64,000 nt of DNA from a bacterium (GTDB lineage Bacteria > Auribacterota > UBA3054 > JAPLST01). This document shows, piece by piece, positions 1,565 to 60,843 of the stretch. The stretch is from NCBI GenBank assembly GCA_026417575.1, contig JAOACZ010000128.1:5127-69126 (forward strand), given 5' to 3'. A program made the position numbers and the translations under genes. Numbering within the stretch: the first letter of the stretch is position 1; each line of letters starts with the position of its first letter. The notes beneath the pieces are model-generated. The model was not told the DNA's origin. It did no database searches and worked only from the letters and a program-made list of their open reading frames with translations.

Positions 1565-1656
<92 letters not shown>

Positions 1657-1706
1657 CGCCGTTCTGCGGGAGCGCCGCCGCGCCGGCGCCCACAGCCCAA
1701 AACACA

Positions 1707-1782
<76 letters not shown>

Positions 1783-10172: not shown

Positions 10173-11650
10173 GCAGCGCCACGGTCATTTTTCCGCACCA
10201 GTTGTTCGCAGACCATCCCGGGTTAGATCGTGGGCGGCGCATCGTTCTGGTTGAAGATCAGCTCTTCTTTCGTGATTGGCGGTACCCCGCGCGGTTTCAC
10301 AAGCACAAGTTGATCCTCCATCGCGCGAGTATGCGCGCCTACGCCACCCTGCTGCGCCAGCGTGGCTACGATGTCAGCTACCTTGAGTATGCGCCGGACC
10401 GCGAAATGTCCTATTTGTTTGCGCCTTTGCGCCGCGCAGGTGTGACTGAGATAGTCGTCGCGGAGGTGTGTGACTTCATGTTGGAAAAACGCGTGCGCCG
10501 CTACGCTAGGCAACACGGCATACGCATTACCGAGCTGTCGTCCCCTGGGTTTCTCACCCCACGTGATTGGCTGCTCAACCGACTACAAGGCAAGCAGCGC
10601 CTCAGCCTGACATCTTTCTACATTGCTCAGCGCAAACGTATGGGCATCTTGTTGGATAACGGCAAGCCACGCGGCGGCCGCTGGACGTATGACACCGCGA
10701 ATCGCCAACCGCTGCCCAAGAACCTTCCTGTTCCCCCACTTCCAACTATCTCGCCCTGCCCAGAGGTACGCGCGGCGATAGCCTACGTCACTCAGCACTG
10801 GCCTGACCACCCGGGTGAACCGTCGGCATTTTGGCTTCCGATCACACACGCAGCTGCAGCACAATGGCTCCAGCACTTTCTAGAACACCGTGTGATGCTG
10901 TTCGGCCCTTACCAAGACGCCATGCGTCGGGAGGAGCCTTTCCTCTTTCACTCAGTTCTCTCACCTCTGCTCAACATCGGCTTACTCACGCCCACCCAAG
11001 TGCTCGAGGCCGTGATAGCCGCCGCGCGTGAAAAGGATGTACCCCTTCCATCATTGGAGGGCTTCATCCGTCAGTTGATAGGTTGGCGTGAATTCGTCCG
11101 CGGCGTTTATCTTTTGCACGGCGTACGCCAGCGCACCAGTAATCACTGTGCTTCCACGCGGCCTATGCCAAGCGCGTTCTATCACGGAACTACGGGCCTC
11201 CTGCCCTTTGACACTGTCGTCGCGCGCGTGCAACGCCTGGCCTATTCTCATCACATTGAACGACTTATGATATTGGGGAACCTCATGCTGCTCTGTGGCA
11301 TTCATCCTGACGCAGTTTATACCTGGTTTATGGAGCTGTTCCTGGATGCCTACGATTGGGTCATGGTCCCAAACGTGTACGGCATGAGCCAGTATGCCGA
11401 TGGTGGCTTAATGACCACAAAACCCTACGTGTGCAGTTCACGCTATATCCGCAGGATGAGTGATTATCCTCGCGGTGCCTGGTGTGAAGTGTGGGATGCG
11501 CTCTACTGGCAGTTTATTGATCGGCAGCGCGCCACCCTGGAGGGCAGCCCGCGCACCGCAGTGATGCCGCGCATGTACGATCGGTTTACACCTTCGCGCC
11601 GAGCCGAGCTTGCACGCAAAGCAGAACAATTTCTCGCGCAGCTTACGTAA
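10169..11650 (+). CDS. Cryptochrome/photolyase-related protein (COG3046 'deoxyribodipyrimidine photolyase-related', CryPro-like)
   Basis: 493 aa. The C-terminal FAD-binding photolyase-like region reads LFGPYQDAMRREEPFLFHSVLSPLLNIGLLTP. Its ATG overlaps the upstream stop in an ATGA junction. Confidence 0.6.
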   Translation: MSSATVIFPHQLFADHPGLDRGRRIVLVEDQLFFRDWRYPARFHKHKLILHRASMRAYATLLRQRGYDVSYLEYAPDREMSYLFAPLRRAGVTEIVVAEVCDFMLEKRVRRYARQHGIRITELSSPGFLTPRDWLLNRLQGKQRLSLTSFYIAQRKRMGILLDNGKPRGGRWTYDTANRQPLPKNLPVPPLPTISPCPEVRAAIAYVTQHWPDHPGEPSAFWLPITHAAAAQWLQHFLEHRVMLFGPYQDAMRREEPFLFHSVLSPLLNIGLLTPTQVLEAVIAAAREKDVPLPSLEGFIRQLIGWREFVRGVYLLHGVRQRTSNHCASTRPMPSAFYHGTTGLLPFDTVVARVQRLAYSHHIERLMILGNLMLLCGIHPDAVYTWFMELFLDAYDWVMVPNVYGMSQYADGGLMTTKPYVCSSRYIRRMSDYPRGAWCEVWDALYWQFIDRQRATLEGSPRTAVMPRMYDRFTPSRRAELARKAEQFLAQLT

Positions 11651-40524: not shown

Positions 40525-41751
40525 TTATTCCCTGGCGAAGGCAGCGACACGGGCGTCTGTGTCGTTCGTCAGGCGCGCGAGAAGAGCACGGGCTGCCTGA
40601 TTTGTTTCCATGCGCAGGCGGAATGCAAGGAAGCGCCGTGTATCTCTATCCTGCTCGCGCACAACTGGCGCGAGGAGGTGAGTGGTACGGGGAAGAGAAG
40701 CGAGGCAATCAATGGCTGCCGCGCGCGCCGTGAACGAGGTGCTGCGCAGAGAGGGCTGAACGTCGGCTAGTTTGGCCGAGAGTTGACCTGGTAAGCGCCA
40801 GAGGGTGAGGACGAGCATTGCTTCTGAGGAGATCGTGTTAATGGTAAACAGAATGGAAGAGGGTTGCTCCCAATTCCAACGGCAGGTATCGCGATCGCGG
40901 TTGCGGTTGGCGCGTAGGGCACGCCGCAACGTGGCGGCGCGCTGATCGGCGGACATTCGGAGGTTATAGACGGCGCGATACACAGGTTTATCCCAGAGGA
41001 ACGCGTAGGGATGCTGGCAGAGTAATTCAAGTGGTTGCAACGCCTGCGGCGCGCGAGAATGATCGAGGAGCACAGCGGCCGTGGTGAGGGCTTCCAGGGT
41101 CGTCCGCACGTCGAAGATCGTGTTGTTTCCAGCGGAGCGGTGTGGGAAGTCTAGGTCGGGAGCAGCTCCTGAGGGAGAAGGTGTGGCGCCCTGTAGATCT
41201 GGAAAAAGCTCTGGCCGAGCACGTACGGCAAACGCCCAAGCTGGTGTGAGGGGTTCGAGGCTACGCACATAGATAACGGGGGGAAGTGTGTGGAGTAAGC
41301 GCGTGATTTCTGCTGCGATCAACTCGTACACAGCAGGGTAGCGTGCGCGGTAGAGAGCCACGCAGGCAGCGGGCGTTAGGCGAAAGTGGTCGCGAATTAC
41401 GCTGTCAGCAGTAGGGTCATGAGTGCGCAGAGTAGCGAGCGCATGCAAGGCGTAGCCACGTGCAATATCAAGACTTTTTGGGTTGACCGTAGCGATTGTA
41501 CCAGCTTCGAACTCGTCACATCGTTGCAAGATGGCAGCGAGGGCGCGTACGCTGCGCTGATCGGGCAATTGAGCGAGGCGTATGGCATACTGCCGGAGTT
41601 CACTTGGAGAGAGAGCCAGGCGAGCGGCGTGCTCATACCGCTCGATTTCAGCCAGCTGGTCAGGGGAGAGAGCTGGCGCTGGGATGGCGCAGAGTACGGC
41701 GAGGAGTGCGCCAAGGAGTGATCGCCAGCGGGGGAATGGGCGGGAGGTCAT
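40525..41751 (-). CDS. Secreted alpha-helical repeat (HEAT/ARM-like) protein
   Basis: Start set at MTSRPFPRWRSLLGALLAVLCAIPAPALS (signal peptide), whose ATG forms an ATGA overlap with the upstream stop. Leu/Ala/Arg-rich helical repeats throughout. The track's 5' extension would overlap the upstream gene by 211 bp. Confidence 0.5.
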   Translation of the reverse strand: MTSRPFPRWRSLLGALLAVLCAIPAPALSPDQLAEIERYEHAARLALSPSELRQYAIRLAQLPDQRSVRALAAILQRCDEFEAGTIATVNPKSLDIARGYALHALATLRTHDPTADSVIRDHFRLTPAACVALYRARYPAVYELIAAEITRLLHTLPPVIYVRSLEPLTPAWAFAVRARPELFPDLQGATPSPSGAAPDLDFPHRSAGNNTIFDVRTTLEALTTAAVLLDHSRAPQALQPLELLCQHPYAFLWDKPVYRAVYNLRMSADQRAATLRRALRANRNRDRDTCRWNWEQPSSILFTINTISSEAMLVLTLWRLPGQLSAKLADVQPSLRSTSFTARAAAIDCLASLPRTTHLLAPVVREQDRDTRRFLAFRLRMETNQAARALLARLTNDTDARVAAFARE

Positions 41752-51621: not shown

Positions 51622-52137
51622 TTATTTGCATTCGCCGCACGGGGGTGGACAGGCTGGAGGACAGCTCGGCGGGCACGGCTTCTTCCAGGACTTTTTGCCC
51701 TTGCACGGGTAGGGGCAGGGGCGGCCCTTGGGTGCGAGCGGGATGCAGCCTTGCCGTGGATTTACGTACGTTTGCTTTGTGGGTGGGATCCAGCGCGCAT
51801 CCCACACAAAATCTGGCACGAGGTCATGGTAGTACAGGCCTTTGCCCGTCAGCCCGAACGTGACGACATCTGTTACGCCTGCGAGCTCACGCCAGGTTGT
51901 TAAAAAAGCACCTTTGATCGGCCCGCTGAGGAAGCCTACGATCGGGATGCGGGAGTTTTCATAAATCAGGCCACGCGGAATTTCGAGCCAGCCCGTCATG
52001 ATGTTCGCGAAACCGCGCGCCACCCCGTAAGCCGGGTTGATCGGTTTGGCGCCAGACGGCCTCGCCTGGTGCGACTTGCCAGCCATCAATGTCGTTGCTG
52101 CCATCAGAACGGCAAGTGCACATGCGAGTGCTTTCAT
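51622..52137 (-). CDS. Small secreted family protein (recalled as 'exosortase system-associated, TIGR04073-like') fused to a Cys/Pro-rich C-terminal tail
   Basis: Signal peptide MKALACALAVLMAATTLMA. Family core is GFANIMTGWLEIPRGLIYEN...GFLSGPIKG...GLTGKG...PDFVWDARW. The tail CPYPCKGKKSWKKPCPPSCPPACPPPCGECK has four Cx3C motifs and one CxxC. GAGGAG RBS. Confidence 0.6.
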   Translation of the reverse strand: MKALACALAVLMAATTLMAGKSHQARPSGAKPINPAYGVARGFANIMTGWLEIPRGLIYENSRIPIVGFLSGPIKGAFLTTWRELAGVTDVVTFGLTGKGLYYHDLVPDFVWDARWIPPTKQTYVNPRQGCIPLAPKGRPCPYPCKGKKSWKKPCPPSCPPACPPPCGECK

Positions 52138-52207
52138 ATCTGCTCCTCAGGTTAGGGTTATGCGCGCCGCACACGGCGGCTGCGCCGGAGAGCTGCGATT
52201 CTGGTGT

Positions 52208-52237
52208 ATTGTACCACACCTCCAGGGCTGTTTGCAA
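52208..52237 (-). promoter_or_regulatory. Sigma70-type promoter for the 52137-to-40525 minus-strand gene string
   Basis: Minus strand reads TTGCAA (52237-52232), an 18-nt spacer, then TACAAT (52213-52208). This sits about 65 nt upstream of the ATG at 52137. Confidence 0.5.
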
Positions 52238-52241
52238 TGCT

Positions 52242-52270
52242 TTGACTCTCTCACGGCCTTCTGCTATAAT
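52242..52270 (+). promoter_or_regulatory. Consensus sigma70 promoter for the aminopeptidase gene, back-to-back with the minus-strand promoter
   Basis: TTGACT (52242-52247), 17-nt spacer, TATAAT (52265-52270). The predicted TSS falls at or next to the GTG at 52278. Confidence 0.55.
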
Positions 52271-52277
52271 TTCGCTA

Positions 52278-53366
52278 GTGAGAACAGAATGGATAGAGCG
52301 TTGGGCGCGCTTGTTGGTGCGCCATGCGATACGTGTGACCCGCGGCAGCGTGATTAAAGTTCGCGGTACGGTGGAGGCGCGCGCGTTGATGACCGCCGTA
52401 TACGCGGAACTGCTGCGTGCGGGCGCGCATCCGCGCATGACAGCTGTGCTCCCTGAGTTGACGCATCTTTTCTACACCTTGGCGAGTCGTGAGCAGCTCG
52501 GCTACCTCTCGCCGCTCGACGTGCATGAAGCGCGGCATTGTGATGGCTTTATCACGATCAAAAGCGATACCAACACCCGCGAGCTCTCGACCATTCCAGC
52601 GGAAAAACAGGTTATCACGATGAAAGCGGCGAAGCCACTTTCTGACATTATTATCAAGAACGACAACTGGACACTAACACTCTACCCGACCGCGGCCTAT
52701 GCGCAGGACGCCGACATGGCCATGAGCGAATTTGAAACGTTTGTGGCCAAGGCGTTATTTCTGGACAAATCCGATCCAGTGGCAGCCTGGCAGGAGCAAG
52801 AGCGCTGGCAGGCCAAGCTGGTGCGGCGGCTGGCAGCGGCAAAAACGGTGCGAATTGTCGGTCACGATACGGACCTTTCGCTGAGCGTAGCGGGGCGCAC
52901 GGTCCTCAATGACGGTGGGCATCACAACATCCCCGGGGGTGAGATTTTCACAGCGCCGCTCGAGACAAGTGCAGAGGGACGCATTCGCTACACGTATCCG
53001 GTCGTGGCGTACGGGCGTGAAATCAGCGACATTTATCTTGAATTTGCGCGTGGAAGAGTCGTCAAAGCTAGTGCGGCCAAACATGAGGAATTTTTACACA
53101 AGATGTTAGACATGGATGCGGGTGCACGTTATCTTGGTGAGTTTGGGATTGGTACGAATTATGGCATTCAGCGGTTTGTGCGCAACATTCTGTTCGATGA
53201 AAAGATTGGGGGGAGTGTGCATCTTGCTGTCGGCCGCAGCTATCCGAAGTGCGGTGGCCGCAACAAATCCGCGCTGCATTGGGACATGATTAAGGATCTG
53301 CGTCAAGGTGGCATGTTGTATTTTGATGGAACGCTTGTGCAGCGTGACGGGAAGTTTCTCATTTGA
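52278..53366 (+). CDS. M29-family (AmpS/PepS-like) aminopeptidase, probably leaderless with a GTG start
   Basis: WIERWARLLVRHAIRVTRGSVIKVRG aligns with the AmpS N-terminus. There is no in-frame ATG between the promoter and this region. The track's ORF begins upstream of and inside the divergent promoter. Confidence 0.55.
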   Translation: MRTEWIERWARLLVRHAIRVTRGSVIKVRGTVEARALMTAVYAELLRAGAHPRMTAVLPELTHLFYTLASREQLGYLSPLDVHEARHCDGFITIKSDTNTRELSTIPAEKQVITMKAAKPLSDIIIKNDNWTLTLYPTAAYAQDADMAMSEFETFVAKALFLDKSDPVAAWQEQERWQAKLVRRLAAAKTVRIVGHDTDLSLSVAGRTVLNDGGHHNIPGGEIFTAPLETSAEGRIRYTYPVVAYGREISDIYLEFARGRVVKASAAKHEEFLHKMLDMDAGARYLGEFGIGTNYGIQRFVRNILFDEKIGGSVHLAVGRSYPKCGGRNKSALHWDMIKDLRQGGMLYFDGTLVQRDGKFLI

Positions 53367-58933: not shown

Positions 58934-59560
58934 TCAGTACGGTGTTTCCATATTTTCTTCGACGGCTTCTTCCTCCTCGAACTCGACTTGGAGGCTTTCT
59001 TCGCCTGGGGCGGGTGGCGCGTAGGGGGACCACTGTGCTGCGAACACAAATTCCGGAAAGAGGTCAGGTGAGAATGCACTTGGTCCGGTCATACCGAACA
59101 TCATGACATCCACAACTCCGAGGACGGCGCGGGAAGTCATGAAGAAGAGACCTTTTAGCAAGCCGCTTCCTATGCCAAGGACCGGAAAATTGACATTTTC
59201 AATAACCAGGTTGCGGGGCAATTCCAGCCAGCAGGTAGAAAGGTTTACGCATCCACGAAAGAAGGCCCAGGGAGGGTTGAGCTCGCGCGGGTAGGTGGGG
59301 CGGGGCGGGGGTGCGGGCGTTGGTACTGGCGTAGGAGTTGGCAACGCCGCAGCCTCTGTCGCAGGCTTGGCAGCCGCTGTTGGCGCTACTGGCGGAGGGC
59401 TCACAGGGGTGGGAGCGGAGGGGGGCGTTGCGAGCGTTGGTGCATTAGTTGCGATTGCATTAGCGCTCACATGTGCCACCGTGCTGATGTTTGTCGCGTG
59501 CGTAAGCCACGCACTGCCCAGGGCAATTGTTAGGCTCGCGATCAAGCGCTGTGTCTTCAT
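58934..59560 (-). CDS. Small secreted family protein, paralog A, with a Pro-rich N-terminal linker
   Basis: Signal peptide; core FFRGCVNLSTCWLELPRNLVIEN...GIGSGLLKG...FGMTGPS...PEFVFAAQW. AAGGAG RBS. Confidence 0.55.
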   Translation of the reverse strand: MKTQRLIASLTIALGSAWLTHATNISTVAHVSANAIATNAPTLATPPSAPTPVSPPPVAPTAAAKPATEAAALPTPTPVPTPAPPPRPTYPRELNPPWAFFRGCVNLSTCWLELPRNLVIENVNFPVLGIGSGLLKGLFFMTSRAVLGVVDVMMFGMTGPSAFSPDLFPEFVFAAQWSPYAPPAPGEESLQVEFEEEEAVEENMETPY

Positions 59561-59634
59561 CTGGAACTCCTTGTGACGTCTGGTGTGGCGAATAGCTCAT
59601 CTATGCAAGATGGGTAGACTCCTCCTCATGCAGC

Positions 59635-60042
59635 TTAGTAGAGCTCAGCTTTGTCCGAGAGCCAGGGGTCTTCCCACGGATAATCAGGCACGGCCGTAGC
59701 ATAGCCATAATGGCCCGTGTAACCAACGGAAAGCAGGTCCACCACGCCGAACAGCGTGCGCATCGCAGTCATAGTTGTGCCCATGAGAGGGCCGGTGAGC
59801 ACTGCCGAGAGAGGCCTTCGAGTGAATTCGTAACTTAAATTGCGGGGCAGCTCGAGCCAGCCCAACAGCACATTGGCTGCGCCGCGTTGCATCCCGAAAC
59901 GCATGGCCTCGCCTGTGGTGTCAAACTCGTATTCTGGCATGAGGGCGAAGGCAGCGTCGTCTCCCTCATTTTGGGCGCGCACGAGCGTGGGATTGGACAC
60001 TATGAGAAGAATCGTGACGAGTATTGCTGCAAAAGGTTTCAT
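59635..60042 (-). CDS. Small secreted family protein, paralog B
   Basis: Start MKPFAAILVTILLIV (signal peptide, GGAGAC RBS). Core GMQRGAANVLLGWLELPRNLSYEF...GPLMG...SVGYTGHYG...PDYPWEDPW. Confidence 0.55.
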   Translation of the reverse strand: MKPFAAILVTILLIVSNPTLVRAQNEGDDAAFALMPEYEFDTTGEAMRFGMQRGAANVLLGWLELPRNLSYEFTRRPLSAVLTGPLMGTTMTAMRTLFGVVDLLSVGYTGHYGYATAVPDYPWEDPWLSDKAELY

Positions 60043-60069
60043 GAAAGAACGTCTCCGTGACATAAGGGA

Positions 60070-60843
60070 TTACCGTGGGGGGCGGGGTGTGCCGCCGGGG
60101 AGTGTTGGGTCAGCCACGCTAGCTGCTGGTGGCGGAGGGGCAAGGGATGGAGCGCTGCGTACACGTGCATCTGTAGTGCCCACCGTGACGGGGGCTGTGC
60201 CCGGCTGAACAATTTTGCGTGGGGTAGCTGGGCCAACGGGTTCGTCGCTGGTGTGAAGTGTAGGCGGCTGGAGCGTTTCGTGATAGAACCAATCGCCTTG
60301 CCACACGAAGTCAGGGTAACCGCGCGCCAACCGTATGTCGCCGAAGTAACCCAGAGTCACTATGTCGGCCACACCCGCCGACATTCGGCTCATACCGCCG
60401 CCGAGGCCAGCTAGCCATGACGTGCCCAGTGCTTCATACCATGGGCGCTGGCTAGAGAATTCATACGTGAAGCCGCGCACAAGCTCGCCGGGCCAGAGGG
60501 TGAGGTTGGCAAACCCTCGCCAGAGACCGAAACCCATGACACGCCAGAGAGCAGTTGTGCGCATGGGAGGGGCGGTAAGTTCCTGGTAAGCGGATTCGCT
60601 GAGCAGATCGAGGTCCGGCACAGCCGCAGGTTGTGCGCCCGTAGGGCGAGCTTGCCCCAGCTCGGCGCGCGGAACCACAGGCGCGGCGAGCGGCAATCGC
60701 TCGGGAGCCGACGTTGGCGCACTCGCGCCAGCGCGCCCCACTACGCTTGTCGCCGGCTCCAATACCTGTGGTAACAGGACGTCGCCGTGTGCCAGCCATG
60801 CGGTGGCCACTACTGCTGCCCCAAGCCAACGGAGCGTCTTCAT
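60070..60843 (-). CDS. Small secreted family protein, paralog C
   Basis: Start MKTLRWLGAAVVATAWLAHG (signal peptide). Core GLWRGFANLTLWPGELVRGFTYEF...GLGGGMSR...LGYFGD...PDFVWQGDW. Confidence 0.5.
   Translation of the reverse strand: MKTLRWLGAAVVATAWLAHGDVLLPQVLEPATSVVGRAGASAPTSAPERLPLAAPVVPRAELGQARPTGAQPAAVPDLDLLSESAYQELTAPPMRTTALWRVMGFGLWRGFANLTLWPGELVRGFTYEFSSQRPWYEALGTSWLAGLGGGMSRMSAGVADIVTLGYFGDIRLARGYPDFVWQGDWFYHETLQPPTLHTSDEPVGPATPRKIVQPGTAPVTVGTTDARVRSAPSLAPPPPAASVADPTLPGGTPRPPR

Follow-up and report, generated by a model that had tools for sequence, protein, structure and literature searches.

A cysteine-ladder protein at the head of a five-gene operon

We analysed a 64,000-nucleotide stretch of contig JAOACZ010000128.1 (the window) that contains a minus-strand gene for a small secreted protein of the TIGR04073 family with a C-terminal tail rich in cysteine, proline and lysine. 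This gene, hereafter the tailed gene, is the first of a co-directional and tightly spaced run of five minus-strand genes with no terminator-like sites between them, in agreement with an initial annotation of the sequence, which had placed it at the head of an operon containing DsbD. The run comprises the following features.

51622–52137, minus strand: tailed TIGR04073 gene, an open reading frame (ORF) of 171 amino acids (aa) plus stop codon
52078–52137, minus strand: signal peptide (MKALACALAVLMAATTLMAG), residues 1 to ~20 as read from the sequence, with a putative cleavage site
51778–52047, minus strand: conserved family core, residues 31–120, a helical hairpin plus ordered loop
51628–51747, minus strand: Cys/Pro/Lys tail, residues 131–170, with 8 Cys, four Cx3C units and a terminal CGEC
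51049–51597, minus strand: thioredoxin (Trx)-fold lipoprotein (PF00085, 1.8e-12 over 97 residues), separated from the tailed gene by 24 nt
50800–51030, minus strand: FmdB-family zinc ribbon of 76 aa (TIGR02605 and PF09723), no signal peptide
49189–50781, minus strand: DsbD, three-domain thiol:disulfide electron transporter (Pfam DsbD_N, DsbD_TM and Thioredoxin_7)
46133–49192, minus strand: AsmA-like/DUF748 protein of 1019 aa, its start overlapping the DsbD stop by 4 nt

The product of the tailed gene is identical to the hypothetical protein N2595_06160 of a metagenome-assembled genome (MAG) at NCBI. It is predicted to be a Sec-exported protein of two parts, a helical-hairpin core of ~90 residues and a disordered basic tail. 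A hydrophobic N-terminal helix (residues 2–16) is kept across homologues and fits a small secreted protein. In an AlphaFold2 model built on a 150-sequence alignment, which we used in place of a run on a shallow 18-sequence alignment (predicted local distance difference test score, pLDDT, 57), the core consists of helices at residues 35–63 and 67–92 followed by an ordered loop, with pLDDT >90 over residues 31–120. Thirty-six alignment columns are invariant among 18 homologues, and no solved structures related to the core were found. The tail (residues 121–171) has a pLDDT of ~55 and is predicted to adopt neither helix nor other structure, and the last 52 residues are basic, with a net charge of +9.

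The C terminus, ...CPYPCKGKKSWKKPCPPSCPPACPPPCGECK, contains four Cx3C units (CPYPC, CPPSC, CPPAC and CPPPC) and one CxxC (CGEC), forming a ladder in which cysteines recur at every fourth residue with prolines in between. These are the motifs given in the initial annotation, which nevertheless overstated the size of the string that it quoted: the string is 31 aa long instead of 35 and contains 7 Cys instead of 10. The chance of at least 7 Cys in 31 aa is ~1e-6 at the Cys frequency of the window (1.75%). The mature protein, which ends in ...QGCIPLAPKGRPCPYPCKGKKSWKKPCPPSCPPACPPPCGECK, has eight Cys in all (positions 131, 141, 145, 155, 159, 163, 167 and 170), and a ninth, at position 6, lies inside the signal peptide.

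Assignment to TIGR04073 is borderline with the NCBIfam model (50.0 bits for a cutoff of 50, E = 2.3e-13, residues 39–98), and a hidden Markov model (HMM) built from 150 relatives matches the protein at E = 2.1e-53 over residues 3–132; there is no match to a Pfam family. The family membership proposed initially is upheld by these matches, but not the count of four further members in the window, where the 150-relative HMM finds three. They lie in tandem on the minus strand (58934–59560, 59635–60063 and 60070–60909), and have no Cys after the core, as had been stated for the paralogues at 58.9–60.9 kb. These three plain paralogues carry Pro/Ala-rich or acidic extensions and are adjoined by PhoU and Pst phosphate-transport genes, and upstream of them is a gene for a putative lipoprotein of 215 aa that matches no family (region 58934–61538, minus strand).

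The tail is conserved and selected at the protein level

Comparison of sequences indicates that the tail is genuine, conserved and under selection as protein. All five clusters of close relatives (P0002–P0006, 63–71% identity) have a Cys/Pro/Lys tail, which ends in PC-PPPCGGC[QR], CPPRCGHCK or ECGCR, and two more tailed relatives (L027/L028 and L029) were reached through a neighbouring gene. The number of units is variable, with one CPPP unit more in L027/L028 than in P0003, and the residues are kept through synonymous changes at Cys (TGC/TGT) and Pro (CCN) codons among the orthologues. Codons are also mixed within the tail of the window gene (TGC/TGT and CCA/CCC/CCG/CCT), and Tandem Repeats Finder (TRF) detects no DNA tandem repeat in the tail region. 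That orthologues keep the tail despite synonymous codon changes, and without a DNA tandem repeat, argues for selection at the protein level.

Two orthologues depart from the common pattern. L029 (168–671) has lost its two terminal Cys (PPPSGGWR versus PPPCGGCR) through separate codon changes to AGC and TGG. The tail of the distant orthologue L017 (244–786) has two Cys in a single CxxC with Met-rich, quasi-symmetric flanks (PGMMQPGQPGP-CGKC-PMMQPGQPGQQGP), followed by a basic stretch and a poly-Asp end of eight residues.

The tail is neither absent nor frameshift-derived in close relatives, a concern that the initial annotation had raised. An origin by frameshift or read-through is ruled out by the presence of the tail in all close orthologues, by the gap of 24 nt between its stop codon and the next gene, and by the synonymous Cys and Pro changes. 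A recent DNA slippage repeat is ruled out by the empty TRF result and the mixed codon usage.

The spacing of the cysteines was compared with 2,000 shuffles in 33 tails that have at least 3 Cys after the core. Cx3C occurs 48 times versus 10.7 ± 3.1 in shuffled tails, a ~4.5-fold enrichment that none of the 2,000 shuffles reaches, and without the window clade there are still 23 occurrences for 6.5 expected. CC is depleted (2 observed versus 15.1 expected) and CxC is not enriched (9 versus 13.4). Cys counts of subfamily tails are often odd (5, 7 or 9). Short tails are enriched in Cys (7.4-fold), Lys (5.5-fold), Pro (2.8-fold) and Gln (1.7-fold), depleted in Arg (0.58-fold) and His (0.52-fold), and at background in Met (1.07-fold); hydrophobic residues are scarce (Leu 0.12-fold, Ile 0.3-fold, Phe 0.21-fold and Ala 0.33-fold). 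A search of the tail sequence against solved structures gave no match.

A C-terminal sorting signal (PEP-CTERM, MYXO-CTERM, GlyGly-CTERM and similar) is ruled out because the tail has no hydrophobic segment, and c-type haem attachment because there is no CxxCH: the sole CxxC is CGECK, and orthologues have CGGC[QR] or CGHCK, never with His next. The twin Cx3C (CHCH) pattern of the small Tims does not describe the tail either, as its Cx3C units are filled with Pro and no helix is predicted by AlphaFold in residues 121–171. A classical metallothionein is disfavoured by the CC, CxC and Cx3C counts given above.

A profile search of 1.84 billion representatives recovered 221 relatives of the tailed protein. 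Only one relative is present in GTDB species genomes, which indicates that the lineage is rare. At least 3 Cys after the core are found only in the closest subfamily (roughly P0001–P0031). This subfamily comprises short forms, with a basic tail rich in Cys at the C terminus, and long forms of ~250 aa, in which a Pro-rich linker with a few Cys leads into a conserved amphipathic C-terminal helix (...RIKAMDARIxEIEKRAGIW). The idea of an undescribed fusion, put forward in the initial annotation, therefore survives in one half. No paper on TIGR04073 was found in the literature, and on the comparisons made here a Cys-ladder tail on an uncharacterized secreted family in a conserved DsbD operon is a real and undescribed variant; it is not a fusion of a separate domain, because Cys-bearing C-terminal extensions occur across the subfamily, long forms included. 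A long-form paralogue (P0011) is encoded in the same MAG as the tailed protein, and short Cys-rich and long C-terminal-helix forms stand in tandem in L010 (179–1391), L018 (5270–6624) and L022 (674–1870). Such arrangements suggest that the two forms may work as a pair.

The tailed gene is linked to an intact DsbD

The order tailed TIGR04073 gene, Trx-fold lipoprotein, FmdB, DsbD and AsmA-like gene is also found in L001/L003, L004, L005, L027/L028, L029 and L017, giving seven distinct contigs with the window included. The contig of P0002, which equals in length the contig that carries DsbD P0175, probably has the same five-gene order with that DsbD. L017 represents a deep lineage, in which identity to the window proteins is 53% for TIGR04073, 36% for the Trx-fold lipoprotein, 45% for DsbD and 29% for the AsmA-like protein. 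The L017 DsbD is no closer to that of the window than are DsbD proteins from other contexts (P0195, 50%), showing that the linkage of the operon exceeds what recent common descent would give. In all seven cluster loci it is the tailed form, never the long form, that is linked to DsbD. Genes for DsbD, Trx or a zinc ribbon are missing from the loci of long forms with adequate flanks (L006, L015, L018b and L023), and none is found at the long form L007, where 1.7 kb of downstream sequence was available. The contigs of two further relatives, P0020 and P0025, are too short to give gene context.

The six catalytic cysteines of DsbD (117, 124, 224, 342, 467 and 470) are invariant in 7/7 cluster loci. 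The Trx-fold lipoprotein, by contrast with E. coli TrxA, has SAPC in place of WCGPC in the alignment (SAPC in the window, L001, L004 and L029; SAPS in L005, L017 and L027), whereas the cis-Pro loop (VPT) is kept, and its lipobox Cys is the only invariant Cys across the seven loci. We conclude from this replacement of the CxxC that the lipoprotein is redox-dead, as far as its residues predict, and cannot be a catalytic member of a relay, so a disulfide relay of the kind suggested initially cannot run through this protein. With this partner lacking a CxxC, nothing that the operon exports other than the tail is rich in Cys. The lipoprotein gene is always paired with the tailed gene, and its product has a conserved C-terminal KLLAPGTIPPHRK (window 51049–51597; L005 891–1451; L017 811–1404; L027 3660–4175).

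The 4-nt overlap between DsbD and the AsmA-like gene is seen at 49189–49192 in the window, and at 10910–10913 in L001, 10481–10484 in L004, 3338–3341 in L005, 6020–6023 in L027 and 3062–3065 in L029. This suggests that DsbD may be translationally coupled to the AsmA-like protein, which is of the intermembrane-bridge type and has three invariant Cys across the cluster loci. The FmdB zinc ribbon is cytoplasmic, has a C-terminal Cys cluster of its own (CPSAGCGSCK) and may either have a regulatory role or partner DsbD on the cytoplasmic side. A short distance downstream of the AsmA-like gene, a minus-strand gene (41748–45539) encodes a protein of 1263 aa in which a transglutaminase core is combined with DUF3857. 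A transglutaminase core is notable beside a tail of Lys, Gln, Cys and Pro; the gene is absent from that position in L001 and L005.

DsbD orthologues of ~48–50% identity (L030 5081–7632; L031 4073–7767) have no TIGR04073 cluster and lie in a neighbourhood suggestive of oxidative stress or metals, with genes for rubredoxin, rubrerythrin, AhpC/Redoxin, ferritin and YHS-domain proteins. DsbD P0195 adjoins the rubredoxin and rubrerythrin genes, and DsbD P0191 adjoins YHS, AhpC and ferritin genes. The rubrerythrin, rubredoxin, AhpC and ferritin neighbours of these distant proteins tie DsbD in this group to oxidant defence. DsbD has its nearest named relatives in MAGs of Kiritimatiellae, Lentisphaerae, Verrucomicrobia and Chlamydiae, all members of the Planctomycetes–Verrucomicrobia–Chlamydiae (PVC) group, so the source organism is probably a Kiritimatiellota-like member of this group. 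A search of the literature found no paper linking DsbD with Kiritimatiellae, or AsmA-like proteins with DsbD.

Promoter-like site and 5′ leader of the operon

Two elements lie upstream of the tailed gene.

52208–52237, minus strand: promoter-like site TTGCAA-N18-TACAAT with TG extension, from a consensus scan, ~70 nt upstream of the ATG
52162–52185, minus strand: GC-rich inverted repeat (GCGC-A-GCCGC / CGTGT / GCGGC-GCGC); next come CATAAC and a ribosome-binding site, GGAG

The −35 and extended −10 blocks are kept in 7/7 cluster loci, including the distant L017, and the inverted repeat is kept in the six close loci. The repeat could be a leader RNA hairpin or a palindromic operator. Changes in the inner stem in L005 and L027 look complementary by eye, and RNAalifold gives 7 pairs with no double-sided changes. 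The single-sequence z-score of the leader is −0.17. There is no Rfam match in the leader, and the Rfam matches in the window as a whole are two tRNA genes only (1568–1782, minus strand).

An M29 aminopeptidase ORF on the plus strand (52089–53366) overlaps, as listed, the 5′ end of the tailed gene. The Pfam match of this ORF begins at residue 68 and a strong promoter-like site is present at 52242–52270, so the true M29 start is probably further downstream, with the M29 and tailed genes probably being divergently transcribed.

The tail as a possible client of DsbD

We tentatively favour the proposal that the tail is a thiol ladder recharged by DsbD, serving as a reversible cross-linker of the envelope or as an oxidant sink. 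We do so because of the Cx3C periodicity, the odd Cys counts, a composition like that of the SPRR2 proteins, the oxidant-defence neighbourhoods of related DsbD genes, and a report that planctomycete envelopes consist of protein that is rich in Pro and Cys and stabilized by disulfides (PMC3035269). Under this proposal, the tail would serve as a periplasmic thiol client dedicated to the operon's own DsbD. Its cysteines would become oxidized, mostly to intermolecular disulfides, with the CPPxC geometry expected to disfavour intrachain loop closure. In the IgG hinge, prolines between cysteines disfavour closure of this kind. The odd Cys counts, likewise, are easier to reconcile with free thiols or with pairing between molecules than with a closed fold inside one molecule. 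Oxidation would cross-link the tailed protein to itself or to envelope partners, consume oxidants, or both; alternatively, the tail thiols may act as sacrificial nucleophiles that DsbD recycles. In either case DsbD would carry cytoplasmic electrons to re-reduce or reshuffle the tail disulfides. The lysine-rich stretch may hold the tail on anionic envelope material, and the Cys-less Trx-fold lipoprotein would be a non-catalytic holder or adaptor. The amphipathic helix of the long forms and the ladder of the short forms could then be alternative association devices.

Several points weigh against this proposal. The link between DsbD and the tail is that of a shared operon, and DsbD could instead have another client, for example the AsmA-like protein with its invariant Cys or the maturation of cytochrome c. 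No single tail Cys is essential, as L029 is without the two terminal Cys and L017 has one CxxC. The tail can function without an adjacent DsbD: the initial annotation had asked whether Cys-rich tails always neighbour dsbD or trx genes, and this is so in the window clade but not outside it, where the short Cys-rich forms L008 and L018a, from other lineages, have no DsbD, Trx or zinc-ribbon gene nearby. It would also be odd for a structural network of disulfides to share its operon with a reductase, and the SPRR and IgG-hinge parallels are ones of composition only. To our knowledge, the characterized clients of DsbD and ScsB are all folded, being of the thioredoxin-fold or peroxiredoxin type. 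A disordered Cys-ladder tail as a dedicated DsbD client would therefore, if true, widen the known uses of periplasmic reducing power.

The main rival explanation, possible but rather unlikely and among the roles named in the initial annotation, is that the tail is a thiolate element for a soft metal (Cu(I), possibly Zn or Cd), which would act as a periplasmic buffer or chaperone and have its Cys kept reduced by DsbD. Metallothionein-like sequences share with the tails a high Cys content together with abundant Lys, disorder in the apo state and fast change in Cys number, but the CC and CxC spacings of metallothionein type are depleted here, and Pro-filled Cx3C units would, from their expected geometry, place adjacent thiols poorly for a single ion. 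Other metal ligands give a divided picture. Met flanks the CxxC of L017 (PGMMQPGQPGP-CGKC-PMMQPGQPG) and both Met and His are abundant in the tail of L008, whereas across the tails His is below background (0.52-fold) and Met close to it (1.07-fold). The DsbD family is tied to copper tolerance through the Scs system, in which ScsB and ScsC bind Cu+ (PMC10907172), and a YHS-domain gene is found near one distant DsbD orthologue; on the other side, no cluster locus has a gene for a copper efflux pump, oxidase or sensor, and the tail matches no solved metal-binding protein. Should the tail bind metal after all, it would be an unusual periplasmic thiolate buffer without metallothionein spacing.

We think it unlikely that the tail has no dedicated redox link. 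It would then be a basic, Pro-stiffened low-complexity spacer or polyanion binder in which Cys is tolerated or incidental, DsbD would serve other clients, and the operon would be one of envelope biogenesis centred on the AsmA-like protein, which the small protein and the lipoprotein would assist. Known AsmA-like proteins, YdbH among them, do have a small lipoprotein and periplasmic partners from the same operon, and in every close locus it is the AsmA-like gene to which DsbD appears to be translationally coupled. The redox-dead Trx fold, the Cys-rich tails without DsbD nearby and the dispensability of single Cys (L029 and L017) point the same way. What this explanation does not account for is the signature of selection on the cysteines themselves, in the 7.4-fold enrichment of Cys, in its strict Cx3C spacing and in the synonymous variation, or the pairing of DsbD with the tailed and never the long form in 7/7 cluster loci; nor did the literature yield a paper joining AsmA-like proteins and DsbD.

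A thioredoxin split in trans, in which the C-G-x-C of the tail would fill the vestigial groove of the Cys-less lipoprotein and the composite, reduced by the DsbD alpha domain, would act as disulfide reductase or isomerase, is speculative and highly improbable: most cluster-linked tails do end in a thioredoxin/PDI-type C-G-x-C (CGEC, CGGC, CGHC or CGKC), the lipoprotein keeps the cis-Pro loop and has lost the CxxC, and in all loci the two genes are neighbours with 24 nt between them, but L029 has SGGW instead of CGGC, L005 has CGC, and no precedent is known.

Extending the DsbD-recharged ladder to the whole operon, the five genes might form an unrecognized envelope redox module of the PVC group. 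In such a module DsbD would directly recharge a disordered ladder, a client without a Trx fold, that is displayed by the dead Trx-fold lipoprotein and coupled to the AsmA-like bridge. The outer envelope would thereby gain a covalent tether switched by redox state, or a shield against oxidants. We regard this full scheme as improbable. If a DsbD-serviced ladder is correct, it would give a first functional handle on TIGR04073 and on the envelope redox biology of uncultured Kiritimatiellota-like bacteria.

Comparison with known systems

The tailed protein resembles TIGR04073 (named 'exosortase system-associated protein') in its core match and in being a small secreted protein, and the window also has the three plain paralogues. 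It differs in its ladder of ~40 Cys/Pro/Lys-rich residues, absent from most of the family, and in its setting, which is a DsbD operon and not an exosortase context; among the proteins scanned in the 64-kb window there was no match to exosortase or PEP-CTERM.

The closest operon is scsABCD, which likewise encodes a DsbD-family transporter, a Trx-fold protein of the envelope and, in first position, a small uncharacterized protein that contains Cys (PMC10907172; PMC3322552). Unlike the redox-active CxxC partners ScsC and ScsD, the Trx-fold protein of the window operon has no CxxC. The first gene is unrelated to ScsA, and the unit includes FmdB and AsmA-like genes.

Metallothioneins and Csp proteins share with the tail a high content of Cys and Lys and a variable Cys number. 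The tail differs from them in the depletion of CC and CxC, in the dominance of Pro-rich Cx3C and in forming no helical bundle.

Cys/Pro-rich, disulfide-stabilized envelope proteins occur in the PVC group in the form of chlamydial OmcA and OmcB. The planctomycete envelope protein, from the same group, is like the tailed protein an exported Cys/Pro-rich sequence. There is no sequence relationship to these envelope proteins, and instead of a large structural protein the Cys/Pro-rich element here is a short extension of a helical-hairpin protein.

Cysteines separated by prolines are also a feature of the IgG3 hinge, with its CPxCP repeats. In composition the tail comes closest to the SPRR2/LCE proteins, with Pro-separated Cys, variable unit number and a disordered or extended state in common. 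SPRR2 proteins, which have cross-bridging and antioxidant roles in the cornified envelope, are dominated by Pro, Lys, Cys and Gln (PMC7465315), as is the tail. The tail has no homology to them and is bacterial and periplasmic, so the likeness is convergent at most; if the DsbD-serviced ladder is correct, the Cx3C/Pro/Lys tail would be a convergent bacterial counterpart of these eukaryotic cross-bridging and antioxidant proteins.

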